A stretch of DNA of 64,000 bases, taken from the NCBI GenBank assembly GCA_963811605.1, contig CAWESA010000010.1, positions 6,500-70,499 on the forward strand. Direction: 5' to 3'. This DNA is from an uncultured delta proteobacterium. Lineage in GTDB: Bacteria > Desulfobacterota > Binatia > DP-6. Below, piece by piece: positions 2,475 through 50,758 of this stretch. Under the pieces are notes generated by a model. That model saw nothing but the letters and a program-made list of their open reading frames with translations. It was not told the origin of the DNA and ran no database searches. Every line of letters begins with the position of its first letter. Position 1 is the stretch's first letter. Both the position numbers and the translations under genes were made by a program.

Positions 2475-4385
2475 ATGATGCCCCTGACAATGCCCTGCCG
2501 TCTCGCGCTCCTCGCCACCGTCCTCGCTCCCGTGCTCGCCCCGCCGCCCGCTGCCGCCGTCGATCCGGGGTCGGAGCTGATCACCTGCGATCGTGCGGAC
2601 GAGCGGGTGGAGATCACCGCCAGCTCGCACCTCGATCCCGCCTGCACCTGGACGCGCGGGGTGGAGATCCTGGCCTCCAACGTGACGCTCGATTGCCAGG
2701 GTGCCCACATCGCGGCGCCGGATCGTCGCTACGGCGTGTACATCCACGCCCCCGCCGACACCCCGCTCACCAACATCACGGTGCGGAACTGCCACGTCGA
2801 GGGCTTCCTCAACAACTTCCACATCGAGCGCGAAGGCTTCCGCGAGCTCGCCGAGGGCGTGGAATACGACGACGGCTTCTCCGACATCACGATCGAGGAC
2901 AGCACCAGCCTCGACTCGCGCGGCGTCGGCATCTTCGTGAACGGCTACGTCGAGGGCGTCACGCTGCGGAACCTCCACGTCGAGGGCGCCGGCAGCACGG
3001 GCATCTACCTCGAGGCCGGGTCCAAGAACTGCGTCGTCGAGGACAGCACCATCGTGAGCAACGGCTTCGGCGAGAATAGCCCCGCGGGAAGGGTGTTCAC
3101 GTTCTCGGGCGTCGACTTCTGGGTCTGGGGCACCGGTCGCGAGGGACTCGCGATCGACGGGTCGCGCTTCAACATCGTCCGCAACAACACCTTCCAGGGC
3201 AATACCTTCGGCGGCATCTTCCTCTACAAGAACTGCGGCGAGTTCGTGACCCAGCGGCCGGAACGCTGGTTCCAGCGTCGCTACGGCGCCGACGGCAACG
3301 TGATCGAGCACAACACGTTCATCGACGAGGACAACGGCGTCTGGATCGCGTCGCGCATGAGCGAGAACACGCTGCCGATGGAGTGCAGCGACCCGCAGTA
3401 CCTGCCCGGCTACGCACTCGACTACGCCGACGACAACGTCGTCCGCGACAACCACTTCCAGAACGTCACATTCGGCGTGCGCGTCGAGGACGACCACGCG
3501 GTCGTGACCGACAACGAGTTCGCCAGCCCCGACGCGATCGACGAGGCCATCGTGGTCGGCACGCGGTACCGCACGCAAGCGCTCTCGCAGCCGGTCGACG
3601 GCACGGTCATCACCGGCAACACCGCCACCATCGCCGGCAGCCCGAACCCGTACCGCTGGATCTGGGGGCACAGCAACACCACGTTCAGCGACAACCAGAG
3701 CCTCGGCCGCACGGTGAGCCTGTGCGAGGGCGTGCAGCCGCCGGTCGGCCCCTTCGTCATGACGGTCGACCTCCAGGTCCTGGAGGACCCGAACGATCCA
3801 CCCGACGAGATCCGCGAGCTGCCGCTTCCCGCGGTGCTCCCTCCGTGCGCCAGCGCGTGCGAGACCGGCGGCCCGGTGTCGAAGCCGAGCCTGATCGTCA
3901 AGAAGCTCGACACGCCGCCCGGGGACGACACGCTGGCGTTCAAGGGCGAGCTGGTCGTTCCCCACCCGTTCGCGCCCGCGCTCGACCCGGTTGCCGCGGG
4001 TGTCGCGGTGGTGATCGAGGACGCCGCCGGCGCTCGCCCGCTCGACGTCACGGTCCCGGGCGGCGCGTACGACCCGCTGACCAAGGTGGGATGGCAGGCG
4101 GCGCGCAGCGGGACGAGCTGGAAGTACGTCGACAAGAGCGCGACGCCTCTCGGTGGAATCACCACGCTGACCCTCAAGGACGTGTCGAGGAAGCAGCCCG
4201 GCCTGCTCAAGGTGAAGGTCGCCGGCAAGCGCAGCTCCTATCCCGTCGACCCGGCGAGCCTCCCGCTCACCGGCTTCCTCATCCTCGACCCCCCGACCGC
4301 CGCCACCGGGCAGTGCGGCGTGGCGACGTTCGTCGGGCCGAAGCAGCGCTGCACGACGGACGGTCGGGCCGTCAAGTGTAAGTGA
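2475..4385 (+). CDS. Secreted right-handed parallel beta-helix (pectate-lyase/NosD-like) protein with a conserved ~150-aa C-terminal '...ATGQC...C' domain
   Basis: Signal peptide (MMPLTMPCRLALLATVLAPVLAPPPAAA). Repeated NxxxN/beta-helix turns (RNCHVEGF, RNLHVEGA, VEDSTIVSNG, RNNTFQGN, RDNHFQNV, TDNEFAS). The C-terminal domain is homologous to the C-terminus of the 48385..49539 protein. Confidence 0.8.
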   Translation: MMPLTMPCRLALLATVLAPVLAPPPAAAVDPGSELITCDRADERVEITASSHLDPACTWTRGVEILASNVTLDCQGAHIAAPDRRYGVYIHAPADTPLTNITVRNCHVEGFLNNFHIEREGFRELAEGVEYDDGFSDITIEDSTSLDSRGVGIFVNGYVEGVTLRNLHVEGAGSTGIYLEAGSKNCVVEDSTIVSNGFGENSPAGRVFTFSGVDFWVWGTGREGLAIDGSRFNIVRNNTFQGNTFGGIFLYKNCGEFVTQRPERWFQRRYGADGNVIEHNTFIDEDNGVWIASRMSENTLPMECSDPQYLPGYALDYADDNVVRDNHFQNVTFGVRVEDDHAVVTDNEFASPDAIDEAIVVGTRYRTQALSQPVDGTVITGNTATIAGSPNPYRWIWGHSNTTFSDNQSLGRTVSLCEGVQPPVGPFVMTVDLQVLEDPNDPPDEIRELPLPAVLPPCASACETGGPVSKPSLIVKKLDTPPGDDTLAFKGELVVPHPFAPALDPVAAGVAVVIEDAAGARPLDVTVPGGAYDPLTKVGWQAARSGTSWKYVDKSATPLGGITTLTLKDVSRKQPGLLKVKVAGKRSSYPVDPASLPLTGFLILDPPTAATGQCGVATFVGPKQRCTTDGRAVKCK

Positions 4386-4830
4386 GCGGTCGCGGGTGGC
4401 GGCAGGTGTGAACGCCATCGGATCTCCCGCATGTAGGGCAGCCTGATCGGTGCACTCGGCCCCGGCCCAGGCGAGCGGCCCCAGCACGTCGCTCGGAGAA
4501 AGGCGCCGTCCATGCGAAAGTCGAGCGCGCAGCCGCGGCCGAGCGTGGCCCGCACCAGTGCAGAAGCCCGCAGAAGCGGGAGGCCGGCGTACGCGCTCCC
4601 CCGGTCCGCTCGTGTCGCCGCGGCGGGGCCCGTTGACCCGCGCCTGCAATTCGGCTTTTCGTCGTCGCACGGAAGGTGGCCTTTCGTTCACACGGGGAGG
4701 CCCTGCGTCTACTGCCCGGCCCCTCACGTCAGCGACGTGTTCGTCACCTCGAGGGTCACTCCAAGGACGGCTCGTGCTTCCCGGCACCCACACCTCGCCC
4801 GCGCGTGATGCCACGCCGATCAATCGCGAC

Positions 4831-5997
4831 GTGCCCGTCGCGGCCGCCGGGGAGTTCCGCGCGCTGCGGCTCGGGCCTCTGCGCGTGTGGCCTCCGGTCG
4901 TGCTGGCGCCCATGGCGGGGGTCACCAACTATCCGTTCCGCACGCTGTGCCGCGAGTTCGGCGCCGGCCTCTACGTCTCCGAGATGATCACGGCGCGCGG
5001 CTTCCTCGAGGGCAACGACATGACGCGGCTGCTCGCCAGCAGCCGGCCCGGCGAGCAGCCGCGGTCGGTGCAGCTCTACGGGAGCAATCCGTCCGACCTC
5101 GAGGAGACGGCGCGCGTGATGGTGGGCGACGGCGTCGAGCATCTCGATCTGAACTTCGGCTGCCCGGTTCCCAAGGTCACGCGTCGCGGCGGCGGCAGCG
5201 CCATCCCGGTGCGGCCGCGGCTGATGGCGCGGCTCGTCGGGGCCGCCGTGCGGGGCGCCGGGCGCGTCCCCGTCACGGTCAAGGTGCGCACCGGCATCGA
5301 TGCCCGGCTGCTCACCTACCTCGACTCCGGACGCGTCGCGGAGGCCGAGGGCGCCGCCGCCATCGGGCTGCACGCCCGCACGGCCGCCCAGCTCTACGGC
5401 GGGGACGCCGAGTGGGACGCCATCGCGGCGCTGAAGGCCGCGGTCGGCATCCCGGTGCTCGGCAACGGCGACGTCTGGGAGTGCTGGGACGCACTGCGCA
5501 TGCTGCGCCGCACGGGCTGCGACGGCGTCATCGTGGGGCGCGGCTGCCTCCGGCGTCCCTGGCTCTTCGCGGAGCTGGCCGCCGCCTTCGACGGGCGCGA
5601 GCCGCCGCCGCAGCCGCGCTTCGGAGACATCGCCCGCCTCATGCGCCGGCACGCGGCGCTGCTGATAGACTTCTTCGGACCGGTCAACGGCATCCGGCAG
5701 ATGCGCAAGTGGTGCGCCTGGTACACGACCGGCTTCCGCAACTCCGCCGGGGCCCGCGCGGCGCTGGTCACGATCACGAGCCTCGCGGAGATGGACGCCG
5801 TCCTCGCACGCCTCGATCCCGACGAGCCCTTCCCGACCGCCACGGTGCGCTCGAACCGGGTGAAGGACGGCAGGGTGCAGCGGCGCGTCGCGCTGCCCGC
5901 CGGCTACCTCGACGACCGCGACGACGACACGCCGCCGAGCCCGCCTTTCGACCCGCGCGAGCGGGCGGCCTTCGAGCGCGCCCTCGACGCCGGCTGA
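4831..5997 (+). CDS. dus: tRNA-dihydrouridine synthase (Dus family)
   Basis: VVLAPMAGVTNYPFR ... DLNFGCPVPKVTRRGGGSA ... VTVKVRTG TIM-barrel/FMN signature. No ATG in frame before LAPMAG; I propose the GTG at 4831. The listed start at 4450 is a low-complexity extension. Confidence 0.8.
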   Translation: MPVAAAGEFRALRLGPLRVWPPVVLAPMAGVTNYPFRTLCREFGAGLYVSEMITARGFLEGNDMTRLLASSRPGEQPRSVQLYGSNPSDLEETARVMVGDGVEHLDLNFGCPVPKVTRRGGGSAIPVRPRLMARLVGAAVRGAGRVPVTVKVRTGIDARLLTYLDSGRVAEAEGAAAIGLHARTAAQLYGGDAEWDAIAALKAAVGIPVLGNGDVWECWDALRMLRRTGCDGVIVGRGCLRRPWLFAELAAAFDGREPPPQPRFGDIARLMRRHAALLIDFFGPVNGIRQMRKWCAWYTTGFRNSAGARAALVTITSLAEMDAVLARLDPDEPFPTATVRSNRVKDGRVQRRVALPAGYLDDRDDDTPPSPPFDPRERAAFERALDAG

Positions 5998-6004
5998 GAC
6001 GCGC

Positions 6005-6607
6005 TCACAGCCGCCCGCAGCCGGGCACGAAGCGTCCGATGTGCGCGGCGTAGGCGCGGTAGGCCCGGCCATGCGTGCGCGTCAGGTATGGCTCCTCGAC
6101 CCAGCGCACCTGCAGCTCGAGGGCCAGCACGAGGACGACCAGCGCCAGCGCCGAGGCGGCGTTCGGGGCGGCGAGCAGCAGGCCGAGCGCGGCGACCAGC
6201 ATGCTCGAGTAGATCGGGTTGCGCACCCAGCGGAACGGACCGCGCGCCACGAGCGTGGTCCGCTCCCCCTCGCGCACCCCGATGCGCCAGGCGTCACCCA
6301 TCGCGAACTGGGCCCACAGCGTGCCGGCGACGCCAGCGCCGTAGAGCACCACGCTCGCGCTCCGGAACCCCGCCGCGTCCAGCGCCGACCACGGCGCCAC
6401 CAGCCCGGCGAGCTGGAGGCACGGCGCCGCCACACCGACCCCCAGGGCGATCGCGAACAGCACGCCGCCGATCCACTCCACCGACCCCATGCGCCCGCTC
6501 ACCCCGACGAAGCCCGTCGTCCCGGTGCGGCGATAGTGGACCAGGCTGCGCAGCCCGAAGGCGAGCGCGAGGAAGAGCAGGTATCCGGCGAGAGCGAGCC
6601 AGGGCAT
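6005..6607 (-). CDS. Isoprenylcysteine carboxyl methyltransferase (ICMT)/phospholipid methyltransferase family membrane protein
   Basis: Multi-TM 200-aa ORF with the family motif GPFRWVRNPIYSS. Confidence 0.8.
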   Translation of the reverse strand: MPWLALAGYLLFLALAFGLRSLVHYRRTGTTGFVGVSGRMGSVEWIGGVLFAIALGVGVAAPCLQLAGLVAPWSALDAAGFRSASVVLYGAGVAGTLWAQFAMGDAWRIGVREGERTTLVARGPFRWVRNPIYSSMLVAALGLLLAAPNAASALALVVLVLALELQVRWVEEPYLTRTHGRAYRAYAAHIGRFVPGCGRL

Positions 6608-6647
6608 CGAACCATCCTCCTTGTCGGTGCGCGAGTCGGCGGTTATA

Positions 6648-6661
6648 CGAGCAATTGCTCG
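6648..6661. promoter_or_regulatory. Perfect 14-bp palindrome CGAGCAATTGCTCG in the divergent TetR/ICMT intergenic region; candidate TetR operator
   Basis: Read directly in the sequence, between the minus-strand start at 6607 and the plus-strand start at 6686. Confidence 0.45.
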
Positions 6662-6685
6662 GATTCACTACTCGGATCTCCGCCG

Positions 6686-7459
6686 ATGCGCTCCCGCCGT
6701 CCCGCCCGTCCACTCGAGCCACGCCGGGCGCCGCGCCAGGGCCGCTCGCGGGACACCGTGCGCGCCATCCTGGACGCGGCGGCTCGGATCTTCGCCGCCC
6801 GCGGGTACGCCGACACCACCACCAACCACATCGCGGAGCTCGCCGGGGTCTCCATCGGATCGCTGTACGAGTACTTCCCCAACAAGGACGCCCTGCTGGT
6901 CGCCCTCCTGGACGAGCACCTGGCCGCCGCCGAGGCCGTCCTCGCACGCACGGCGGCGGAGACGCTGGCGGCTCCGCATGCCGCCCTGCGCGACGTCGTG
7001 GGCGGCTTCGTGCGCGCCATGGTGGCCCTGCACGCGCACGAGCCGGCGCTGCATCGCGTGCTGTTCGAGGAGGCGCCCCTGCCCGGCCGGGTGCGCCGCC
7101 GCCTGGCGGACATCGAGCAGCGCGTGACTGCCCAGGTCGCAGCCTGGTGCGCCGCGCATCCGCGCGTCCGCCGGCCCGATCCGGCGCTGGCCGCGGAGAT
7201 CGTGGTCCAGACGGTCGAAGCGCTGACGCACTCGCTGGTCGTCGGTCGCCGCGTGTCACCACCCGCGGACGCCTACGTCGACGAGGTGGTGGCGCTCGTC
7301 GGCGCCTACCTGACGACCGGCGTCAGCGACGCAGCCGAGCCATCGCGGCGTCCACCAGCGGGCGCAGCGCCCGCGAGGTCGCGGACGGCTCGCAGGCCAC
7401 AACCGCCCGCAGGGCCGCGACGTACTCCGCCGGCAACCCGTGCTCGAGGGCGCCGCTGA
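6686..7459 (+). CDS. TetR/AcrR family transcriptional regulator
   Basis: N-terminal HTH (TVRAILDAAARIFAARGYADTTTNHIAELAGVSIGSLYEYFPNKDALL). Start ATG at 6686. The C-terminal tail is unusually long and overlaps the convergent GGCT-like gene by 137 bp, so the end is uncertain. Confidence 0.8.
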   Translation: MRSRRPARPLEPRRAPRQGRSRDTVRAILDAAARIFAARGYADTTTNHIAELAGVSIGSLYEYFPNKDALLVALLDEHLAAAEAVLARTAAETLAAPHAALRDVVGGFVRAMVALHAHEPALHRVLFEEAPLPGRVRRRLADIEQRVTAQVAAWCAAHPRVRRPDPALAAEIVVQTVEALTHSLVVGRRVSPPADAYVDEVVALVGAYLTTGVSDAAEPSRRPPAGAAPARSRTARRPQPPAGPRRTPPATRARGRR

Positions 7460-7847
7460 CGAGCAGCGCCATGTAGCGCGTCGAGGGCTGCAGGGTCTCG
7501 TCCCGCCGCTCGGACGCGAGCGACATCGCCGTGCCGGGCGCGTCCGGACACGACGCGAGCGGCTCGATCGCCAGCTCGACACGCTGGTAGTTCCCGATCG
7601 GCACGCCCTCCGACAGCTCGATCTGCGCCAGATCGTCCGTCGTGACCTCGAACGCCACTCCGAGCGCGGCCGCCGCCGGGTCGGGGACGATGTTCGCGAA
7701 CGCTTCACCGATCGGGAAGAGCGGCGGCTTGTCGAACACCACGCGCCAGCCGGGCGCCCGCACCGGGACGGCGCGCAGGAACGCGATGCCCCGCCGGCCC
7801 CGGAGCGTGGCGCTCTCCATGTTCGACCCGTACGCGAAGTACCACAT
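7323..7847 (-). CDS. Gamma-glutamyl cyclotransferase-like (GGCT/AIG2 family) protein
   Basis: Hallmark N-terminal motif MWYFAYGSNM. 174 aa. Confidence 0.75.
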   Translation of the reverse strand: MWYFAYGSNMESATLRGRRGIAFLRAVPVRAPGWRVVFDKPPLFPIGEAFANIVPDPAAAALGVAFEVTTDDLAQIELSEGVPIGNYQRVELAIEPLASCPDAPGTAMSLASERRDETLQPSTRYMALLVSGALEHGLPAEYVAALRAVVACEPSATSRALRPLVDAAMARLRR

Positions 7848-15220: not shown

Positions 15221-15268
15221 GGCGCGCCGGTTGACCCCTTCGACCCCGCTTGCTAGCGGCGTCGCGGC

Positions 15269-15754
15269 ATGCGGGCTGCCCTCCGACTCGGCTGGATCGC
15301 CTGCGTGGTGGCGGCGTGCGCCGGCGCGCGGTCCACTCCCGCCACCCGCTACGAGGGCGTGCTGCTGAACGGCCGCGACCTCGGCGCGGGCCAGGTGACG
15401 CGAGAAGCCGCCAGCGACCCCACCGTGAAGACGTACGTCGCGCAGCACGGCAATCCCGATTTCGTGCTCGTCGCCAGCCCGACCGATCTCGAGCTGGTCT
15501 ACGTCACGCGCTCGGTGCTCGCCTACTTCCACCGGCCGGCGGCCGGCACGCCGAGCGCGGTGAGCGAGGTGACGCCACTGCCGAGCGGCCTCTACCAGAT
15601 GCTGCCGGCCGACCTCCGCGCCGGCACCGCGGCGCCGATGAACCCGGTCGGCCCGAACTGCTGGACGGTGCCGGTGGCGGGCCAGAGCTGTCGCACGTGC
15701 TGCCTCGGCGCCGGCGCGTGCACGGTGCAGTGCACGGCGCAGGGGCCCCGCTGA
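15269..15754 (+). CDS. Putative lipoprotein with a Cys-rich C-terminal tail
   Basis: Signal peptide with a lipobox (LGWIACVVAAC). C-terminal CWTVPVAGQSCRTCCLGAGACTVQC. No family recognised. Codon usage is consistent with the genome. Confidence 0.5.
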   Translation: MRAALRLGWIACVVAACAGARSTPATRYEGVLLNGRDLGAGQVTREAASDPTVKTYVAQHGNPDFVLVASPTDLELVYVTRSVLAYFHRPAAGTPSAVSEVTPLPSGLYQMLPADLRAGTAAPMNPVGPNCWTVPVAGQSCRTCCLGAGACTVQCTAQGPR

Positions 15755-25425: not shown

Positions 25426-28400
25426 TTAGTCCAGGGGGGCTCCTCGACCGATCCAATCCTCGACCACACGGAATTTTGCACCACCCACTTCGAAGCCCTG
25501 CACCGTCCCGCCGCCGTGCGGCACGCGCCCCGAAGGCTTGAGGAGCAACAAGCTCGTGTCGGGTCGCGTCGGCGTCACCCGGATGCGCGCGGGTCCGTAC
25601 GCCTGTTCCGGCGTGCCGCCGAGGTCGAACCCGTTCGGCGGGGTCGGTCCGGTGTGGCAGCCGCGGCACACCTCGAGCTGGGGCGAGACATCGGCTCGAA
25701 AAGCCGATCTCACAGTTCCGGTCTGCCGCGCGAGTACTGACACGAACGTTCGATCCGTGCCGGCGGTACCGAGCGACGGATCGCGCACGGCGAATTCGAC
25801 GGTGTGGAAACCCAGGGTCGCAGGTGCCAGTCGCGCGACAGCGTGGTCCGCGTCCGACAGCATCGGGGGCGCGCCGGCGGGGAAGGACACGATCGTCGCG
25901 GAGTGCTGCGCATCGTCGGGGAGGTTGAGGCTGAAGGAGGTATCCAGCACCGCAATGTTCCCGACGTCGACTTCACGCGGCGCGCGGACGCGCGCGATGA
26001 CGCGCCCGGGCCTCAGCTCACGTCCGCATGTGAGCAGCTCGCCGCGGGACAGGAACGTCTCGCCGGCGGACGGTTCGAGCAGATACGCGTGCGTTCTATC
26101 CGTCAGCGACAGAACTCCGGCATACGATCGACTCCGATCCAGCACTCCCCACGCGCGCCCGCCGTCGAGGCTCCGAACCGGATTTGCGGTCGACGACGAG
26201 GCGTCGGCATAGAGTACTCCGGGAGTGAACGGATCGAATGCCAGCCGCGTGAACGGCGTGAGCAGGCGCCACGTCCCGCCGCGGTCGTCGCTCCGCCACG
26301 CGGCCCGCCCCTCGGCCGGATCGTTCGAGAGGCCTTGGACGATCAGCACCTTCTCGTCGTGCGGATCTACGATGATGTTGTCGAGCAGCGCCGCCGGCTG
26401 CGTCGGGAGTGGTGTCCAGTTTGCACAGTCGGTCGTCTCTTGCGGGACGCCGTCGACGATGCCGAAGACCGTCGGAGGCTGTCCGGGTACGACGGAAGCT
26501 GGCGTGACGGCCCGCACGTTCTGGGCACAGAACGTCCAGGTGCCCTCCAGGTGGTAGAGGTCATGCTGCCCTGCGGGATCGCTGTTCTCGCGCAGCACCA
26601 GGTAGACCTGGGCCGGGGGCAGGCCGTCGGCGCTGGGGCCTATCGCGAGTTGCTCGACGAACCGTGGGGCCGGGAGGCCTTCCTCGAAGTCCGTCGTCGA
26701 CCAGTTGTTGTTCGAGCTTCGAAGGACACGGTCCGGTGTCACCAGCGCATACTTCACACGCGTGTCGAGCGGATCGAATGCCAGGGCGAGCGGGACACCC
26801 GAGGTGGGAAACCGCGTCATCGGGTTGCCCCAGCTCGCGCTGCTGGCGCCTACCGTGATCTGCCGCGCCTGGAGCTGCCCGTCGACCAGTCCTGCGGCGA
26901 GGAGGTGGGCAGGATTCCCGGGTTCGGCGGCGGCCACGGACACCACCATGCCCTTCCCCGACGCACCGAGAGACTCCCACGTGAACTCTCCCGGAAGGAC
27001 ATCACCGATGGTGGAAGGTCCCGTGCTGGAGCTCGTCCAGAATCTCTCGAAGGTGCGTCGAGCGAGCGGCATCTGACCGTCCTCGCACACCAGCTGTCGG
27101 ACGCCATTCGAGAGGAGGCGGAACTGCTCGAGCGAGTTCAGGGGTAGCGCGGTCTGCGCATGGCATCCACGACAGCCGTGGCGGATGGCGTCGTAGAGCG
27201 ACGGATCTTGCAGCCACCCGTTTGGAACGAACGATGAATCGAACGTCGTCCTCGGTAGTCCCTGGCCGCCATACCATCCCTCGATCAGCTCTTTGATCGC
27301 GGCAGAAGGCTGGTAAAGGCGCTGATCCGCGTCGAGAACCGCACGATTCAGCTCCCTGAACTGCGACTCCTGCGCGGCACGGCTGAGGTCCGGTCGGGGG
27401 GAATAGTCGAACGAATCGAGGTCGAAGGGAATGAAGCGAGCGCCGAGATTGCCCCCGGAGGGTGCGTAGCCCCCGGCCGCACGCCCGCCGTGGCAGGGAG
27501 TGCATAGCTCGGGCTGGAACTTCACGCCGCGCCCGTCGAGATCTATGCAGTCGAGCCGCGCGCCGGCGACGCCGTAGGTGAAGAACTTGATGAAGGGCTG
27601 CGCACTCGGATCGTCATCCGGCGAAGACAGCTCCATGGCGACGGTAGCCAGCAACCCCTTCTTGAGCGGATCTAGAGCCGCATCCGCGCTGCAGTAGTTC
27701 TCCACGTAGAAGGCGATTCGATGATCGTCGTCACGGCGCATCGACATGCGCCGGCCAAATCCCAGATCGTTCGCATTGACGTAGATCGCCAATGCCTGTG
27801 GTGGCCCAAACCCGTTGACCGTCCTCCAACCGTCGAGCGTCGTGCGGAGGTGATAGGGGTCGACGACGTCGTAGTAGTCCCCGGCATCGGGCGCTGGCGG
27901 GAGATCGCGGAAGGCGAAGCTGAGGAAGGAGTGGGGATCGGGAGGCAGATCGTCCGGCGCGACGTGCCCGCAGAGCGACGGCATGGTCGTGGTGGTCGTC
28001 GAGGTCGTAGTGGTCGCGACCGTCGTGGTGGTGGTGGACGGCGCCGTCGACGTCGTGGAGGTCGTGGTGGGCACGACGGTGCTGGGCGACGGTGCCGTCG
28101 TCGTCGTGGTCGCCTTGATCGTGCTGGTCGACGGCGCGATCGTCGTCGTGGCGGGTACGATCGTAGTGGGCGACGCGTCCGTCGTCGTGGTGGGGCCGGC
28201 GATGGTCGTCTGAGTGGACACGCTGGTCGAGGTGGTGGGGCGGGACGTCGACGTACTCGTCGAGGTCGTGGCCGATGTCGGCGCGCTCGTCGTGGTCGTC
28301 GTCGGAGACACCTCGGACTGGAGAACGCAGCGACAGGCGACGCACGACGAGCCCGGAGGACAGGCCGCCAGACCGGGCTCCCCGCAGGTTTCGCCCGGGT

Positions 28401-28866
28401 CGGCGGTTCCGTTGCTGCACCCCGGCGCAGGTGCAGGGCACCGGCAGCCCGCATCGCATACGTCGCCTCCCGCACACTGTCGGCCTGGCGGATCGCACTC
28501 CTCGCCACGGACAGCCGTAACGATACCGTCCCCGCACCTCGAGTCGCACGCCATGCCCCCGTCGCTGCAGCAACTCTTGCAGTCCCCGGCGAATCTGCGG
28601 CACTGCGACTTGAGCGTCCGCAACACCCGCTGACGGCATGCCCTCCTCGCATCCGCGTTGCAGTCTCGAGATGCACGCTCCCTAGCCTGCGTGATGCACG
28701 CTCGGAGCGCGCTGCGGCAATTCCTGGCACACGGACCGGGCCTCGGCACCGCGGCGGCACGCGCCGCGATGCCGGCCAGCGCGACGGCCACCAAGCACGA
28801 GGCAATTCGTGACCCGCGTGAACTGGAGGTGGACAACCTTCGCTGCCCCGTGCGTGGCCGTGGCAT
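25426..28866 (-). CDS. Large secreted multidomain protein: signal peptide, myxo-type Cys-rich repeats, Thr/Ser-rich linker, three CxxCH (PSCyt-like heme-binding) motifs, BNR/Asp-box repeats
   Basis: Start proposed at ATG 28866 (MPRPRTGQRRL...CLVAVALAGIAARAAAV). N-terminal CGDGIVTAVRGEECDPPG repeat. A ~110-aa T/S/P linker. CTPCHGG, CRGCHAQ and CRGCHTG followed by ...SLLLLKPSGRVPHGGG, reminiscent of planctomycete cytochrome c domains. SDDRGGTW and SLDGGRAW Asp-boxes. Confidence 0.8.
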   Translation of the reverse strand: MPRPRTGQRRLSTSSSRGSRIASCLVAVALAGIAARAAAVPRPGPCARNCRSALRACITQARERASRDCNADARRACRQRVLRTLKSQCRRFAGDCKSCCSDGGMACDSRCGDGIVTAVRGEECDPPGRQCAGGDVCDAGCRCPAPAPGCSNGTADPGETCGEPGLAACPPGSSCVACRCVLQSEVSPTTTTTSAPTSATTSTSTSTSRPTTSTSVSTQTTIAGPTTTTDASPTTIVPATTTIAPSTSTIKATTTTTAPSPSTVVPTTTSTTSTAPSTTTTTVATTTTSTTTTTMPSLCGHVAPDDLPPDPHSFLSFAFRDLPPAPDAGDYYDVVDPYHLRTTLDGWRTVNGFGPPQALAIYVNANDLGFGRRMSMRRDDDHRIAFYVENYCSADAALDPLKKGLLATVAMELSSPDDDPSAQPFIKFFTYGVAGARLDCIDLDGRGVKFQPELCTPCHGGRAAGGYAPSGGNLGARFIPFDLDSFDYSPRPDLSRAAQESQFRELNRAVLDADQRLYQPSAAIKELIEGWYGGQGLPRTTFDSSFVPNGWLQDPSLYDAIRHGCRGCHAQTALPLNSLEQFRLLSNGVRQLVCEDGQMPLARRTFERFWTSSSTGPSTIGDVLPGEFTWESLGASGKGMVVSVAAAEPGNPAHLLAAGLVDGQLQARQITVGASSASWGNPMTRFPTSGVPLALAFDPLDTRVKYALVTPDRVLRSSNNNWSTTDFEEGLPAPRFVEQLAIGPSADGLPPAQVYLVLRENSDPAGQHDLYHLEGTWTFCAQNVRAVTPASVVPGQPPTVFGIVDGVPQETTDCANWTPLPTQPAALLDNIIVDPHDEKVLIVQGLSNDPAEGRAAWRSDDRGGTWRLLTPFTRLAFDPFTPGVLYADASSSTANPVRSLDGGRAWGVLDRSRSYAGVLSLTDRTHAYLLEPSAGETFLSRGELLTCGRELRPGRVIARVRAPREVDVGNIAVLDTSFSLNLPDDAQHSATIVSFPAGAPPMLSDADHAVARLAPATLGFHTVEFAVRDPSLGTAGTDRTFVSVLARQTGTVRSAFRADVSPQLEVCRGCHTGPTPPNGFDLGGTPEQAYGPARIRVTPTRPDTSLLLLKPSGRVPHGGGTVQGFEVGGAKFRVVEDWIGRGAPLD
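27960..28330. repeat. Low-complexity GTCGTG/GTGGTC-rich tract encoding the Thr/Ser-rich linker of the large secreted protein
   Basis: Visible as a run of gtcgtggtggtcgtcga... units. Slippage-prone. Confidence 0.6.
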
Positions 28867-29001
28867 GAGCGAGCGACCGTAACGCAGCTCGCCACGGATC
28901 GTCAAGGAAAATATGGATAGTCAATAAGATTCTCTTGAGCAGCGTATTGATTCCATGTGTTCACACTTGCTATTCACGTGCAAGCGCATTAGGACAGGCC
29001 C

Positions 29002-29799
29002 GTGACGAGGAACCGCAGTGTGCTCGAGGACACACGAGCCAGCTCCGAACGACGCCGCTGGGTGTCGGCGCGACGGTTGGCGGGGGTCGTTGCGCTGTTC
29101 ATGGCCGGCACGCTGGTCGGGCGCCCACCGGTCTTCGCATGCGAGCTGGACGGCGTCGTCGGCCCGGGAGAAGAGTGCGACGACGGAAACGACAACGACG
29201 TCGACTGCTGCCGCAACGACTGCACGGCCAACGTCGGCGCCCCGTGCGGGCCGGGCATCACGTGTGGTGCCGATCGATGCAACGCCGCCGGCACGTGCGA
29301 GCGAGTGGCGGCGAATCGCGGCGTGGTCTGCGGGCCGGCAAGCAGTACGTGCGACCCGCCACCTCGATGCGACGGCTCGGGCACGGGGTGCCCCGCGGCA
29401 AAGACGGACAAGTCCCTCTGCGCCTGGAGCATCAAGCCAGCCGGCGACCCGCTGAGGGAGGGGATCTCCGCCCTGTGCAGCGTGCCAGACAATCTGGGTA
29501 CGTCGTCCGGCGGGACTCGCCGTTCCGACTGCGTCTGTGTGGGCAAAGAGCAGGGCGGGGGCAAGCGGCTCACGGCACGCGTGGCTCCGCGGCTCGTGGA
29601 CAAGACGGAAAGCCCCGATGGACCGCGGAAGGAGAAGAGGTTCTTCCTTCGTCTCAACGCGCGAGGCCGGCGGCTCTTGAAGCAGGGCGGAACCCTCACC
29701 GTCGAAGTGAACGCGGTCATTCACCACGGGGATACGGAGAAGGGGTCGGAGCGCAGCCCCCTCAAGAAGTTGATCATGCTGCTGCTACGGAGCAGGTGA
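29002..29799 (+). CDS. Secreted cysteine-rich protein with myxobacterial Cys-rich repeat (TIGR02232-like)
   Basis: Signal peptide (ARRLAGVVALFMAGTLVGRPPVFA), then CELDGVVGPGEECDDGNDNDVDCCRNDC ... CDGSGTGCP. Lies in the lower-GC islet. Confidence 0.7.
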   Translation: MTRNRSVLEDTRASSERRRWVSARRLAGVVALFMAGTLVGRPPVFACELDGVVGPGEECDDGNDNDVDCCRNDCTANVGAPCGPGITCGADRCNAAGTCERVAANRGVVCGPASSTCDPPPRCDGSGTGCPAAKTDKSLCAWSIKPAGDPLREGISALCSVPDNLGTSSGGTRRSDCVCVGKEQGGGKRLTARVAPRLVDKTESPDGPRKEKRFFLRLNARGRRLLKQGGTLTVEVNAVIHHGDTEKGSERSPLKKLIMLLLRSR

Positions 29800-29943: not shown

Positions 29944-31176
29944 TTGCATCGGCACTTCCGTCCGCACGCTCCCACGACCGCCGGAGCGCGCGTGGAGCGC
30001 CGTGCTCAACAGCTGTTCCAACGAGTGGGCGAAATGCCGGTCGTGATCGGGCGATCCGTAGGCGAAGGCGGTACCAACAACCCCGCCGATGTCACACAGA
30101 TCGACGGCTTGCTGGCGAAGGTCGGAGTGCTGAGAGCGATCCGGGCCACCGCCGCGACACGACACGTAGCGATAAAGCGATTCCAGCAGATATGGGGTCT
30201 CGGGTCTGGCGGCAAGTTCGACGGCCGGATCGACCCCAACGCGACCACTCTCAGGAGGCTCAACGAGACCGCGAGGGGACTGACCCTCAACGCGATCGGT
30301 CTCGGCACGATCAAACGCGGCGGCTATCTGATCTCACACACCCCCAAGGCACCGCCCGCCCCGTACAGGCTTCTGCTGGGGCCATCGGTCCAGGACTGCA
30401 TCGACGTGACCGGTCGTCCGAGCGCGGATCTCCTCGACGTCCCCAAGCTCGTCGAGCTGCTCAAGCTGATCCAGAAGCTCGGCAAGTGGGGACAGATGCT
30501 GAGCGTAAAATTGCTCGTCGTACTTGACGGGCAGCCCGTGTCGGAATCGCTTCCCCAAGTATTGAACTGCCCGGTACAGCCACATAACGGCAGGATGCTG
30601 CCGCTCGATTTAACCGGAAACGGGAGCAAGCTGACGTACCAGGGTGACCCGGACAGAAACGAATTCAGTGGTCGCCTTCTTCACAAGATCGAAGGTTTCG
30701 ACGGATACTTCTTCAAGTACGCCGGGAAGTTCGAGACCAGCGCGAGCCGGCGTGGCTTTGACTGCATCACTTACGTGGGAACCACATGCGGGGCCCCCGA
30801 TGACGCGATGACCGCGAGCCCGCAACTCGCGGATGCCATGAACGCCAAGCGGTGTTCGATCGAACGGCTCGTCTCGCAAGATTCGCCCACCGGCCAGACG
30901 CCACCGACGGCCGCCCCGCGGACCAAGAAGGTCACGCTCGAGCTGGAGCAGACGGATCCGCAGAACGTCAAGGACTTCTTCGCAAGCAAGCCGACCGGTT
31001 ACTACCTCATGTGGAGCGGCGGGCACATCGTGATCGTGGCCGATGGCTCGGTGTACGAATTCGCCGCATCCAGAAAGGGGTACGTCGCAACGCCGGTGTC
31101 CTCGTGGCTCGAGCCTTACAGGACCAAGAGGCTCACCGTTCGCGAGCTCCCGTCAAAGCCGGCTTTGGCCACCTGA
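29944..31176 (+). CDS. Peptidoglycan-binding domain protein with C-terminal NlpC/P60-like cysteine peptidase motifs, no signal peptide
   Basis: PG_binding_1-like region (VTQIDGLLAKVGVLRA...AIKRFQQIWGLGSGGKFDGRIDPNATTLRRLNE). C-terminal FDCITYVG (NlpC/P60 DCSG-like Cys) and GYYLMWSGGHIVIVADGSVYEFAAS (His motif). TTG start at 29944; GTG 29989 or ATG 30034 are alternatives. GGGGGAG SD-like motif ~35 nt upstream of the TTG (too far to act as its RBS). Confidence 0.6.
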   Translation: MHRHFRPHAPTTAGARVERRAQQLFQRVGEMPVVIGRSVGEGGTNNPADVTQIDGLLAKVGVLRAIRATAATRHVAIKRFQQIWGLGSGGKFDGRIDPNATTLRRLNETARGLTLNAIGLGTIKRGGYLISHTPKAPPAPYRLLLGPSVQDCIDVTGRPSADLLDVPKLVELLKLIQKLGKWGQMLSVKLLVVLDGQPVSESLPQVLNCPVQPHNGRMLPLDLTGNGSKLTYQGDPDRNEFSGRLLHKIEGFDGYFFKYAGKFETSASRRGFDCITYVGTTCGAPDDAMTASPQLADAMNAKRCSIERLVSQDSPTGQTPPTAAPRTKKVTLELEQTDPQNVKDFFASKPTGYYLMWSGGHIVIVADGSVYEFAASRKGYVATPVSSWLEPYRTKRLTVRELPSKPALAT

Positions 31177-46280: not shown

Positions 46281-46388
46281 GGAGGGAGCGTCCCATGCAG
46301 TCGCCGCAGCGGGTGATCGACCGGACGCGCGCGCGTGAGTCTCCGCACACGCTTGCGTGCGCTGGTCTCGACTAGTAGATGCTAGCGC

Positions 46389-46613
46389 ATGTCCACCGCC
46401 CAGATTGCGGTTCGCCTCGACGGTCGCCTCAAGCGCGCGGTCGATGCGGCCTCCCGCCATCGCGGCGTGAGCCTGACCCGGTTCGTCCAGGATGCCCTGC
46501 TGGACAAGCTCGAGGAGATCGCCGACGCGGAGGACATCCAGCGGCTGCGGCGCGAGCCGACCCGTCCCCTGCGCCAGCTGATCCGCGACCTCGGGCTGGA
46601 TGGCGAAGTATAG
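46389..46613 (+). CDS. Type II antitoxin (RHH/ParD-RelB-like)
   Basis: 74 aa, MSTAQIAVRLDGRLKRAVDAASRHRGVSLTRFVQDAL... Overlaps the downstream toxin gene by 14 nt. Confidence 0.8.
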   Translation: MSTAQIAVRLDGRLKRAVDAASRHRGVSLTRFVQDALLDKLEEIADAEDIQRLRREPTRPLRQLIRDLGLDGEV

Positions 46614-46860
46614 GATCGACGTCTCGGCGACCGCCGAGCGTCAGATCCGCAGGCTGCCGCGCACCGACCAGGCCCGGATCCTGCGTGCCGTGGTCGCGCT
46701 CTCGACCGCGCCGCGGCCGCCCGGCTGCCGCACGCTCTCGGGCCACGACGACGTGTTCCGGATCCGCATCGGCCGCTATCGCGTGCTCTATGCGATCGAG
46801 GATCGGCGGCTGGTGATCCTCGTGCTCAAGGTGGGCGACCGGAAGGACGTGTACCGCTGA
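46600..46860 (+). CDS. RelE/ParE family type II toxin
   Basis: 86 aa, ...AERQIRRLPRTDQARILRAVVAL...FRIRIGRYRVLYAIEDRRLVILVLKVGDRKDVYR family signature. Confidence 0.85.
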   Translation: MAKYRIDVSATAERQIRRLPRTDQARILRAVVALSTAPRPPGCRTLSGHDDVFRIRIGRYRVLYAIEDRRLVILVLKVGDRKDVYR

Positions 46861-48384: not shown

Positions 48385-49539
48385 ATGCTAGGTAGAAGGG
48401 TGTCAGATCGCGCGGCTCGTGGTGTCGGTGGTGTCCGCGGCCTCGGCCAGGTCGCGACGGCGGCGCTGCTGGTCATCGCCCTGGCGACGCCGGCGCGCGC
48501 GCTGGTGTGCGGCGACGGCATCCTCGACGCGGGCGAGCAATGCGACACCGGCAGCCTGATCGGCACCGGCTGCTGCCTCGTCGGATGCCTCCTGGCCCCC
48601 CTCGGGCTCGAGTGCCGCCCGGCGCAAGGCGCGTGCGACCTGCCCGAGATGTGCGACGGCATCCTGCCCATCTGCCCGACCAACGTCTTCAAGGCCGCCG
48701 GGGTGTGCCGTCCCGCCAAGGGGCCGTGCGACGTGGCAGAGACGTGCAGCGGGGTCGGTCCCGCCTGCCCCGCCGACAGCCTGGCCCCGCCCAGCACCAC
48801 GTGCCGGCCGGCGGTCACCGCCTGCGACCAGCCCGAGCTGTGCACCGGCGTCTCCGTCGACTGCCCGGCCGACACCGGCGAGCCGGACGGGGACGGCGAC
48901 GGGACGTGCGACCGCGAGGACCTCTGCCCGCTGGTTGCCGATGCGAACCAGGCGGACGCGGACGGCGACGGCGTCGGCGACGCCTGCGATCCCTGCACCA
49001 ACGCCGACAACAACCAGATCGACGGACCGCGCCTCGGGCTCGCCAAGCTCTCCGCCCCGGCCGACGACGATCGCATCAAGCTGAAGGCGACGATGTCGAT
49101 CCCGCTCGAGCCCACCATCGATCCAGTCGCGAAGGGCATGCGCCTCGTGCTCACCGGCCCGTTCGGCCCGGTGTTCGACGCCATCATCCCGCCCGGCTCG
49201 TTCGACACCGACAGCCGTGCCGGCTGGAAGCAGGACGGGGACAACCGCTGGTGGTACAAGAACACCGGCGACGAGGTCGCCCGCGTCGCCGGCATCCGGC
49301 GGCTCACCCTGCGCCAGCGCAGCGCCGACTCGAACGACTTCCGCATCGTCATCGCCGGCCGTGGCGCCGACATGCGCGCGGCGGTGGGCCAGCCGACGCT
49401 CACGCTGTCGATCGTGGTCGATTCGCCGCTCGCCACCACGGGCCAGTGCGCCGAGGTCACCTTCGTCACCCAGGGCGACTCGAGCGATTGCCGCCTCCTG
49501 AACGGCGGCCGTCGGCTCGACTGCCGGCAGAAGCGTTGA
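48385..49539 (+). CDS. Secreted protein: myxo Cys-rich repeats + thrombospondin type-3-like Ca-binding repeats + conserved C-terminal '...ATTGQC...C' domain
   Basis: Signal peptide. CRPAQGACDLPEMCDGILPICP / CRPAKGPCDVAETCSGVGPACP / CRPAVTACDQPELCTGVSVDCP repeats. DGDGDGTCDREDLCPLVADANQADADGDGVGDACDPC. The C-terminal 150 aa aligns with the C-terminus of the 2475..4385 protein. Confidence 0.8.
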   Translation: MLGRRVSDRAARGVGGVRGLGQVATAALLVIALATPARALVCGDGILDAGEQCDTGSLIGTGCCLVGCLLAPLGLECRPAQGACDLPEMCDGILPICPTNVFKAAGVCRPAKGPCDVAETCSGVGPACPADSLAPPSTTCRPAVTACDQPELCTGVSVDCPADTGEPDGDGDGTCDREDLCPLVADANQADADGDGVGDACDPCTNADNNQIDGPRLGLAKLSAPADDDRIKLKATMSIPLEPTIDPVAKGMRLVLTGPFGPVFDAIIPPGSFDTDSRAGWKQDGDNRWWYKNTGDEVARVAGIRRLTLRQRSADSNDFRIVIAGRGADMRAAVGQPTLTLSIVVDSPLATTGQCAEVTFVTQGDSSDCRLLNGGRRLDCRQKR

Positions 49540-49579: not shown

Positions 49580-50758
49580 ATGAAGCTGTCGTCCCGTGCC
49601 GTGCTGAGCCTCGCCGCCCTGGCACTCGCCTCGCCCGCCGCCGCGCACCACCGGCAGACCGATCCGGTCGTCGTGCTGACGCTGTCGGGCGACACGCCCC
49701 TGCCCCGTCTCTCCGCACCGGGGAACAAGACGCTCGCCCTCGCCGTCCAGTTCGGCGCCGGCCGCCGCATCGTCTCGCTGTCGCCGTGGCGCGATCGCAA
49801 GAACCCGGCCCTCCAGACGGTCATCGCCGAGTCGGGCAATCACGACAATCCGTCCGTCTCGGTCTCGGGGCGCGCGTTCTCGTACGACTCCGGCAGCGAT
49901 CCCCTGGCCACCGGGCTGCCCGGCCGGCAGGTGATCGGCGTGCAGCGGGTGACGTCGTTCCCCGTCTCCAACGATCCCTCCGGCACCAGCGTCAACCCGT
50001 CCATCGACAGCACCGGCAACGTGATCGCGTTCGAGTCCACGGGCGACCTCGCCGGAATGGGCGTGCCCGGGGTGCGGCAGGTCTACGTCCGGGACCGTGA
50101 CGGGAGCGTCCGCCAGCTCAGCATGGGCCTCGGGACGAGCCAGCACCCGGTCGTGAGCGCGAAGCGTCGCGTCGTCCTGTTCGAGTCGAGCAGCGAGCCG
50201 ACCACCGGCGTCGACACCGGCGTCGCACAGATCTGGCTGGGCGACATCGAGCGCGGCGGCGCGCTGCCGATCACGGCCGGATTCGGCCCCAGCCGCAACC
50301 CCGCCATCAGCAACGACGGCCGCATCGTGGCCTTCGAGAGCACCGCCGACCTGGCCGGCACGCAGGCCGACACGGGGGTGCCGCAGGTCTTCATGTACGA
50401 CACGAAGAGCAGGACGTACGCTCGCATCACCAACCAGCCGGGCGGCTGCACGCTGCCGTCGTCGTTCAAGGTGCAGCGCGACTGGCGTGTCGCCTACGTG
50501 TGCAGCGGACAGCCGTACTTCACCATGCTGCGCGCGAACCAGCGCTACGTGGTGCCGGCGTCCGACGGCGTCACCCAGCGGGTGGTCACCGAGCTCGGCA
50601 TCCACTTCCTGGTCCTCAGCACGACGGCCGATCTCCTGGCCGGCAGCGGGACCACGCCCGGCAACCAGGTCTATCTCGTGAACCTCTTCAAGCGGCCGGC
50701 GGTTCCGGTCGCCGGCAGCATCATGTGGTTCCCGAGCCAGGGCCTGCCGCCGCTGTAG
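49580..50758 (+). CDS. Secreted TolB-like (PD40/WD40-like) beta-propeller repeat protein
   Basis: Signal peptide MKLSSRAVLSLAALALASPAAA. Repeated ..NPSIDSTGNVIAFES / HPVVSAKRRVVLFES / NPAISNDGRIVAFES PD40 motifs. Confidence 0.75.
   Translation: MKLSSRAVLSLAALALASPAAAHHRQTDPVVVLTLSGDTPLPRLSAPGNKTLALAVQFGAGRRIVSLSPWRDRKNPALQTVIAESGNHDNPSVSVSGRAFSYDSGSDPLATGLPGRQVIGVQRVTSFPVSNDPSGTSVNPSIDSTGNVIAFESTGDLAGMGVPGVRQVYVRDRDGSVRQLSMGLGTSQHPVVSAKRRVVLFESSSEPTTGVDTGVAQIWLGDIERGGALPITAGFGPSRNPAISNDGRIVAFESTADLAGTQADTGVPQVFMYDTKSRTYARITNQPGGCTLPSSFKVQRDWRVAYVCSGQPYFTMLRANQRYVVPASDGVTQRVVTELGIHFLVLSTTADLLAGSGTTPGNQVYLVNLFKRPAVPVAGSIMWFPSQGLPPL

Follow-up and report, generated by a model that had tools for sequence, protein, structure and literature searches.

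Two plus-strand genes in the 64-kb stretch of DNA analyzed here, hereafter the window, encode proteins that differ in their N-terminal parts and end in a related C-terminal domain (CTD) (Table 1). Both proteins, referred to as A (beta-helix) and B (Cys-rich/TSP3), are identical on the NCBI/ENA record, have the same boundaries there, and lie on one 1.25-Mb contig. The N terminus of protein A, as read from the sequence, has a hydrophobic core and, after it, a site of the AxA type and is a predicted signal peptide. Its passenger is matched in Pfam by PF13229 (Beta_helix; aa 99 to 255, E=8.5e-18) and PF05048 (NosD; aa 221 to 362, E=2.2e-17). CTD copy 1 comprises an upstream Cys pair (CASAC), 12 predicted beta-strands, and a terminal C-x8-C-K, and it contains the motifs PPGDD, DP, PGGAYD, GW, and TGQC. 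The passenger of protein B consists of three disintegrin-like Cys-rich repeats at about aa 42 to 165 (PF00200 in three stretches, E=3.1e-15) and a TSP type-3-like DxDxDGxGDxCDxC motif at about aa 166 to 206, which abuts the CTD. A weak PF02412 match was also found in protein B, and the NCBIfam model NF047638 matches its aa 168 to 218, a partial match to the TSP3 region of MtsC; MtsC is a Myxococcus protein, and the name of the model marks a MYXO-CTERM sorting signal. CTD copy 2 carries a 3-residue tail beyond its last Cys.

Table 1. Positions of the two CTD-bearing genes and their parts in the window
Feature	Position	Strand	Description	Basis
Protein A gene	2475..4385	+	636 aa; signal peptide, right-handed beta-helix, linker, and CTD copy 1	
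Protein A signal peptide	2475..2558	+	Predicted Sec signal peptide, aa 1-28, MMPLTMPCRLALLATVLAPVLAPPPAAA/VD	Read from sequence
Protein A passenger	2769..3560	+	Parallel beta-helix, aa 99-362	Pfam, TIGR03804 repeat
CTD copy 1	3837..4382	+	aa 455-636	Homology to copy 2, profile match, AlphaFold model
Protein B gene	48385..49539	+	384 aa; signal peptide, disintegrin-like Cys-rich repeats, TSP3-like Ca-binding motif, and CTD copy 2	
Protein B signal peptide	48385..48501	+	Predicted Sec signal peptide, aa 1-39, ...AALLVIALATPARA/LV	Read from sequence
Protein B passenger	48508..49002	+	Approximate boundaries	Pfam, NCBIfam
CTD copy 2	48982..49536	+	aa 200-384, ending ...TGQCAEVTFVTQGDSSDCRLLNGGRRLDCRQKR	Homology to copy 1, profile match

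A search with the beta-helix passenger of protein A alone, aimed at homologues bearing other C-terminal tags, returned 747 homologues at E<=1e-10, and the 120 that were listed are all close orthologues of protein A. The CTD was present in 115 of the 118 top matches analyzed, and 103 of these 115 CTD-bearing orthologues kept the CR/CK end. In the passenger, the orthologues were on average 71% identical to protein A, and in the CTD, 57%. Protein A, with its beta-helix and CTD, represents a conserved orthologue family.

Homology of the two C termini

An earlier note, made from the letters of the sequence, had claimed that A and B share homologous C termini attached to unrelated N termini, and both parts of this claim were borne out. 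A BLASTP comparison of the whole proteins gave one significant HSP (A 468-636, B 212-381; E=4e-15), with 29% identity over 174 columns and 44% positives. In Smith-Waterman alignments with 2,000 shuffles, the C termini scored 189 against 31.7 +/- 5.3 for the shuffled controls (maximum, 61; z ~30), while the N termini scored 38 against 34.9 +/- 5.2, which is the shuffle background. All the motifs that had been listed as shared (KL..P.DD, DP, GW, GI, AG, D.P.A.TGQC, and the terminal Cys pair) are present in the alignment, and most of them proved to be conserved throughout the family described below. The extent of the domain had to be revised. The segment 3880..4385, proposed as a domain of ~150 aa, corresponds to the last ~168 codons of the 636-aa ORF together with its stop codon; the domain measures ~170 to 185 aa and starts not at 3880 but a few residues before the first strand, at a conserved Cys (3837 in copy 1 and 48982 in copy 2).

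The GC content of the window, 72%, biases amino acid composition, and two high-GC genes could resemble each other as a chance or compositional artifact; alternatively, the similarity could reflect a recent local duplication. Either explanation is scarcely credible: the z score of ~30 was obtained against composition-preserving shuffles, 1,391 representative proteins match the CTD profile at E<=1e-10, and the two copies are just 29% identical, each having its own orthologues (P0017 and P0239 to P0356 for protein A; P0023 for protein B). Chance similarity of the two C termini is excluded. Given their 29% identity and separate orthologues, CTD copies 1 and 2 are old paralogues, between which the core motifs have persisted.

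Size, position, and conservation of the CTD family

A first, word-indexed search with CTD copy 1 as the query found 16 relatives with different N termini. An HMM search for other proteins ending in the module, as the earlier note had suggested, was then carried out exhaustively with HMMER over 1.84 billion representative proteins and found 1,993 representatives at E<=1e-3, of which 1,391 matched at E<=1e-10 and 299 at E<=1e-30. Copies 1 and 2 matched the family profile with E=1.5e-72 and E=5.1e-61, respectively. Among the best 150 of the 1,993 matches, 148 were full matches; the CTD ended on the last residue of the protein in 123 of these and within 3 residues of the C terminus in 147, leaving one protein with an internal CTD. 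Two matched CTD stretches were found in 3 of the best 150 representatives. Likewise, at 26 genomic loci, described below, the CTD match reached the stop codon or came within a few residues of it, except at three variant loci (L021, L022, and L025) with divergent tails of about 20 residues.

Conservation was evaluated in 171 sequences, with residues numbered from the start of the segment 3837-4382. W86, C160, C172, and C181 are 100% conserved, and P51, G55, G76, G85, G130, D70, D30, and P47 are conserved at >=90%. At least one Cys lies 2 to 12 residues upstream of strand 1 in 167 of the 171 sequences, and in one sub-family positions 39 and 161 hold a further pair of Cys residues that co-vary. 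The loops hold the conserved motifs PPGDD, P.LDP, PGGAYD, GW, and LD.P.A.TGQC. A terminal C-x(8-11)-C-K/R hairpin is conserved in the family, and 145 of the 171 sequences end in CK, CR, or CQ. From this pattern we infer that the CTD is likely held by two disulfides, one between the upstream Cys and C160 and the other between C172 and C181 across the last hairpin. Both window copies match the profile, possess the Trp and the three C-terminal Cys residues as well as the upstream Cys, and end within 3 residues of the C terminus.

Passengers and export signals

In 67 full-length members, at least 47 Pfam passenger families precede the CTD. Disintegrin-like repeats occur in 33, followed by the DUF5122 propeller (9), DUF4215 (9), and TSP3 (5). 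Further passengers include Sortilin/BNR, Vgb_lyase, Beta_helix, SGL, B_lectin, Laminin_G_3, and CBM96, and the enzymes comprise esterases, chlorophyllase/PETase/alpha-beta hydrolases, an M4 peptidase, a purple acid phosphatase, and GHL15; glycoside hydrolases are very few in this set. The idea that the domain is a mobile C-terminal module is thus supported by more than 40 passenger Pfam families and by a CTD that practically always comes last. A crude test of hydrophobicity classed the N terminus of 60 of 70 full-length members as signal-peptide-like, and a lipobox or lipoprotein-like N terminus was seen in only 2 of 88. Two minimal proteins (P0133 and P0163) consist of a signal peptide and a CTD. 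About 112 of 179 members have a TSP3-like DxCDPC motif abutting the CTD, and the second Cys of this motif seems to be part of the domain itself; other members have Pro/Thr-rich linkers before the domain, and protein A has a CxxxC motif there. The CTD is an independently folding, mobile, strictly terminal module on export-signal-bearing proteins.

Known families and predicted fold

No Pfam-A or NCBIfam model matched either CTD copy at E<=1, no Pfam family was common to all 67 full-length members, and PDB sequences searched with two CTD profiles gave no match. These results agree with the initial impression that the module is not a named family. Database members are all named "hypothetical protein" or after their passenger, and a full-text literature search found no description of the CTD.

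An AlphaFold2 model built from a 32-sequence alignment that included the upstream Cys reached a pLDDT of 92.3 and a pTM of 0.87. The model is all-beta, with 12 strands and two short helical turns, in keeping with the beta-sandwich that had been put forward as one possibility. When a model was built from 10 sequences without the upstream Cys, the pLDDT fell below 50 at residues 140 to 156, in the TGQC region. A Foldseek search of the CTD model against the PDB returned nothing at E<=1e-3, with TM-scores of <=0.24; matches to CBM9 were weak and non-significant. The CTD family is genuine, large, and unnamed; its fold is predicted with confidence, and no close relative has a solved structure.

Hosts, copy number, and genomic context

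One degenerate peptide pattern, which detects only 8 to 15% of CTD family members, was scanned over 185,579 species-representative genomes and yielded the 26 loci. Most of these are in metagenome-assembled genomes (MAGs) titled Candidatus Binatia or "Deltaproteobacteria / delta proteobacterium"; the others are one locus labeled Gemmatimonadota, one labeled Archangium on a 2.6-kb contig, and two in unclassified "bacterium" MAGs. The family is centered on Candidatus Binatia, whose genomes hold several copies each. One Gaiellaceae-labeled CTD protein comes from a 1.5-kb contig. The window contains two copies, with no third copy detected in it by tblastn, and one MAG contains at least five (four loci plus a tandem copy). 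Tandem CTD genes occur at 2 of the 26 loci. Because the pattern catches only 8 to 15% of members, extrapolation suggests that tens of CTD copies per genome are likely.

To compare neighbors, high-GC3 ORFs from the 26 loci and the window were clustered. No conserved neighbor genes were found at the 26 loci other than the Cys-rich/CTD family itself, no protease or sortase, exosortase and myxosortase included, was found next to the CTD genes there, and no candidate processing or secretion gene was conserved beside them; three small ORF clusters were each common to three loci and are unrelated. Ten other window proteins scanned with Pfam included a PQQ propeller, a methyltransferase, a TPR protein, a MacB/FtsX permease, NamZ, and a hydrolase, with no sortase, rhombosortase, exosortase, secretin, or T9SS-like protein among them. 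A Cys-rich protein encoded at 29002..29799 was considered as the bearer of a second shared C-terminal module and rejected, its tail having no relative in the loci. The window gave no tRNA or Rfam match.

Discussion

Shared C-terminal all-beta modules on secreted proteins are of a known general kind, and the CTD is outside the known families of that kind. We tentatively propose, at a little short of an even chance, that the CTD is a cargo tag that targets or retains secreted proteins, resembling T9SS CTDs in action without being one of them. Passenger-CTD proteins would be exported by Sec via their N-terminal signal peptides, and the CTD would fold and be oxidized in the periplasm, where its two disulfides would form. 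It may then give differing passengers one common fate, be they adhesin-like Cys-rich/TSP3 repeats, beta-propellers, beta-helices, esterases, or peptidases. Either the CTD would be recognized by a shared component of the envelope or of secretion, or it would retain the protein on a shared ligand of the cell surface or matrix. The probable recognition surface would be the disulfide-stapled Cys-Lys/Arg hairpin together with the acidic loops (PPGDD, PGGAYD, and LDP).

A cargo tag is favored because the CTD is never N-terminal and is internal in only 1 of 148 full matches, because its passengers resemble the surface and secreted proteins that bear C-terminal sorting domains elsewhere, because the family is paralogue-rich and lineage-restricted, and because the extreme C terminus is conserved, as it is in T9SS CTDs. 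The architecture statistics favor a tag-like over a lectin-like role. Several observations count against a tag: the size of ~180 aa is typical of binding modules, Pro/Thr-rich linkers are often found in carbohydrate-binding modules (CBMs), and no conserved processing or secretion gene lies beside the 26 loci. Moreover, the proteins made up of a signal peptide and a CTD are more easily understood as binding proteins that act on their own than as carriers of a pure export tag. If the Gaiellaceae and Gemmatimonadota labels on a few matches are genuine and some of the hosts are monoderm, reliance on an outer-membrane machine becomes less likely. The charged last residue, for its part, could serve only as protection against tail-specific periplasmic proteases; Prc/Tsp are tail-specific proteases whose specificity is relevant to such a residue.

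T9SS CTDs (TIGR04183/TIGR04131, Por_Secre_tail) offer a close parallel to a cargo tag of this kind. Like the CTD described here, they are folded all-beta domains at the extreme C terminus of diverse Sec-exported passengers, occur in many copies per genome within one lineage, and have conserved or important last strands or residues; the CTD indeed sits at the extreme C terminus of diverse, signal-peptide-bearing cargo. T9SS cargo has a C-terminal beta-sandwich whose last residues are essential and carry the signal, and the CTD of RgpB, which spans K672-K736, also ends in Lys (PMC4804311). Nonetheless, at ~180 aa the CTD is more than twice the size of a T9SS CTD, and the strand number differs. 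As a candidate member of the T9SS group it was rejected: no TIGR04183 or TIGR04131 match was found at E<=1 in NCBIfam and Pfam searches, and it does not conform to the Ig-like seven-strand sandwich of about 65 to 100 residues. T9SS hosts are of the Bacteroidota/FCB lineage and encode machinery such as PorU, PorV, and SprA; the titles of the CTD loci are those of Binatia or "Deltaproteobacteria" MAGs.

The tripartite signals PEP-CTERM and MYXO-CTERM are likewise terminal tags on surface or secreted proteins with an invariant Cys near the C terminus, and MYXO-CTERM shows some overlap in passengers, the TSP3 part of protein B partially matching MtsC. Tripartite signals, at about 25 to 35 aa, combine a short motif with a transmembrane helix and an Arg-rich cluster (Haft 2023, bioRxiv 10.1101/2023.06.07.544157). 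In contrast, the CTD is far larger and holds its Cys residues inside a globular domain. In its last 45 residues, the median of the maximum Kyte-Doolittle hydropathy over 17 residues is 0.88, and a few values reach 1.6 to 1.9. A tripartite signal was accordingly rejected: the CTD has no transmembrane-like segment and ends in C-K/R rather than in a basic cluster.

The CTD might instead be a lectin- or CBM-like module that binds an external polysaccharide, mineral, or host surface and has no sorting role, in which case it would bring enzymes and adhesins to a bound substrate. We regard this as the main rival to the cargo tag, a real but rather doubtful possibility. The CTD resembles CBMs and bacterial lectin-like sandwiches in its all-beta fold, its CBM-like size of 170 to 185 aa, its occasional Pro/Thr-rich linkers, and its attachment to secreted enzymes. 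The conserved loops rich in Asp might serve to bind Ca2+ or sugar, and the stand-alone proteins of signal peptide and CTD, some hydrolase passengers (PETase-like, M4 peptidase, and GHL15), a CBM96-containing protein, and the weak, non-significant Foldseek matches to CBM9 point the same way. However, neither by sequence nor, at a significant level, by structure did the CTD match a CBM or lectin family, and it was rejected as a member of any known one. Glycoside hydrolases are rare, and most passengers are not carbohydrate-active, being mainly repeat or adhesin-like. Placement also differs: typical CBMs are not confined to a single C-terminal position, whereas N-terminal or internal placement of the CTD is all but absent, and tandem CTDs in one protein were not established. 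Furthermore, the family belongs largely to one lineage, which is not what one would expect of a module directed at a substrate common in the environment.

Returning to the cargo tag, a more specific version of it is that the CTD is the signal of an undescribed Candidatus Binatia pathway for outer-membrane secretion or covalent surface attachment, an independent analogue of the T9SS CTD with a new fold. This version is unlikely; if it is true, each genome would have a secretome of tens of CTD-marked proteins, and the signal would be a disulfide-stapled C-terminal hairpin.

The CTD could also be a structural cap, or a folding or stability module, for disulfide-rich extracellular proteins, with no specific partner; it would then be a bacterial counterpart of the globular domain that follows thrombospondin type-3 repeats. 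The thrombospondin TSP_C domain, which is L-lectin-like, does offer a likeness in its setting of Cys-rich repeats, Ca-binding type-3-like motifs, and a terminal beta-rich globular domain. The DxCDPC motif directly before the CTD in about 112 of 179 members, the disintegrin-like Cys repeats in half of the full-length members, and the four conserved Cys within the CTD are consistent with a cap. Passengers without Cys-rich or TSP3 repeats weaken this explanation, which we consider improbable. As a TSP_C domain proper (PF05735) the CTD was rejected, having neither the HMM match nor the L-type-lectin-like fold.

To our knowledge, the cell biology of Candidatus Binatia, a widespread uncultured lineage of soil and sediment, is essentially unknown. 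With one profile it is now possible to mark what is apparently a large part of the secreted or surface proteome of Binatia; the roughly 2,000 sequence clusters contain many adhesin-like proteins as well as peptidases and enzymes of the esterase/PETase-like kind. Should the CTD prove to be a tag for sorting or anchoring, an undescribed secretion or attachment route would be implied, and phylogenetic profiling with the CTD could lead to its machinery; should it prove to be a binding module, the ligand-binding fold would be a new one. The family merits a database entry under either interpretation, and the CTD is a good structural target because a high-confidence model exists and no relative has been solved. 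The CTD family is a good lead into the envelope biology of Binatia.

Conservation of the beta-helix gene and its surroundings

The 636-aa beta-helix protein that carries the first copy of the C-terminal domain (CTD) is encoded at 2475..4385, and its gene was compared with its counterparts at about 4520..6510 in each of three loci (L002, L003, and L004) from other Binatia species-representative MAGs. Identity to these genes was 82 to 86% at the protein and DNA levels alike. Within ±6 kb of the three genes, we searched for the neighbors present in the window, i.e., the sigma factor, queC, methyltransferase, dus, ICMT, TetR, GGCT, and acyl-CoA synthetase genes, and found none of them. Synteny between loci was seen only for L001 with L002. 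Thus, the beta-helix gene is conserved, and its context is not.

Surroundings of the TSP3 gene and other Cys-rich proteins

The gene starting 41 nt past the stop codon of the Cys-rich/TSP3 gene, which bears the second CTD copy, encodes a PD40/TolB-like protein (Table); given this short distance, the two genes may form an operon. The toxin-antitoxin-like pair has hslU on one side and the gene for the exo-muramidase NamZ on the other.

The 1,159-aa ORF lacks the CTD. Its N terminus is signal-anchor-like, and it has a Cys-rich region, a linker of ~150 residues that is rich in Thr, Ser, and Pro, and an extensive C-terminal portion. The 265-aa protein ends in a basic tail unlike the CTD (...KKLIMLLLRSR), for which no relative was found among the genomic loci examined. 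The CTD is not present on all Cys-rich secreted proteins of this genome.

Table. Features of the window and of two MAG loci
Feature	Position	Strand	Remark
165-aa Cys-rich, lipoprotein-like ORF	15257..15751	+	No Pfam match
1,159-aa ORF	25426..28905	-	No Pfam match
265-aa secreted-looking protein	29002..29799	+	Weak Disintegrin-like Cys-rich region
410-aa ORF	29944..31176	+	No Pfam match
Small antitoxin-like ORF, then RelE/ParE-like toxin ORF	46386..46860	+	From sequences alone
PD40/TolB-like beta-propeller protein	49580..50758	+	Signal peptide
CTD-bearing tandem gene pair	L012 989..3589 and 3616..6510		MAG locus
CTD-bearing tandem gene pair	L007 4996..6483 and 6389..7831		MAG locus

Variation within the CTD family

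Two database entries of 208 aa each, P0001 (518-kb contig) and P0008 (320-kb contig), resemble lone CTDs. Their starts fall within the linker of beta-helix orthologues (MTVAVAVL...DPANPP...), and both probably reflect a truncated gene call or a frameshift, not a protein that is truly this short.

In the family alignment, a sub-family has an additional Cys pair at reference positions 39 and 161, within the motifs KGRC(I/V)PF and GQCCEM. Both residues occur together in the same eight sequences; this suggests that strand 2 and the strand following the TGQC motif are joined by a third disulfide. The tandem arrangement of CTD genes in two MAG loci (Table) suggests that the family has expanded locally.
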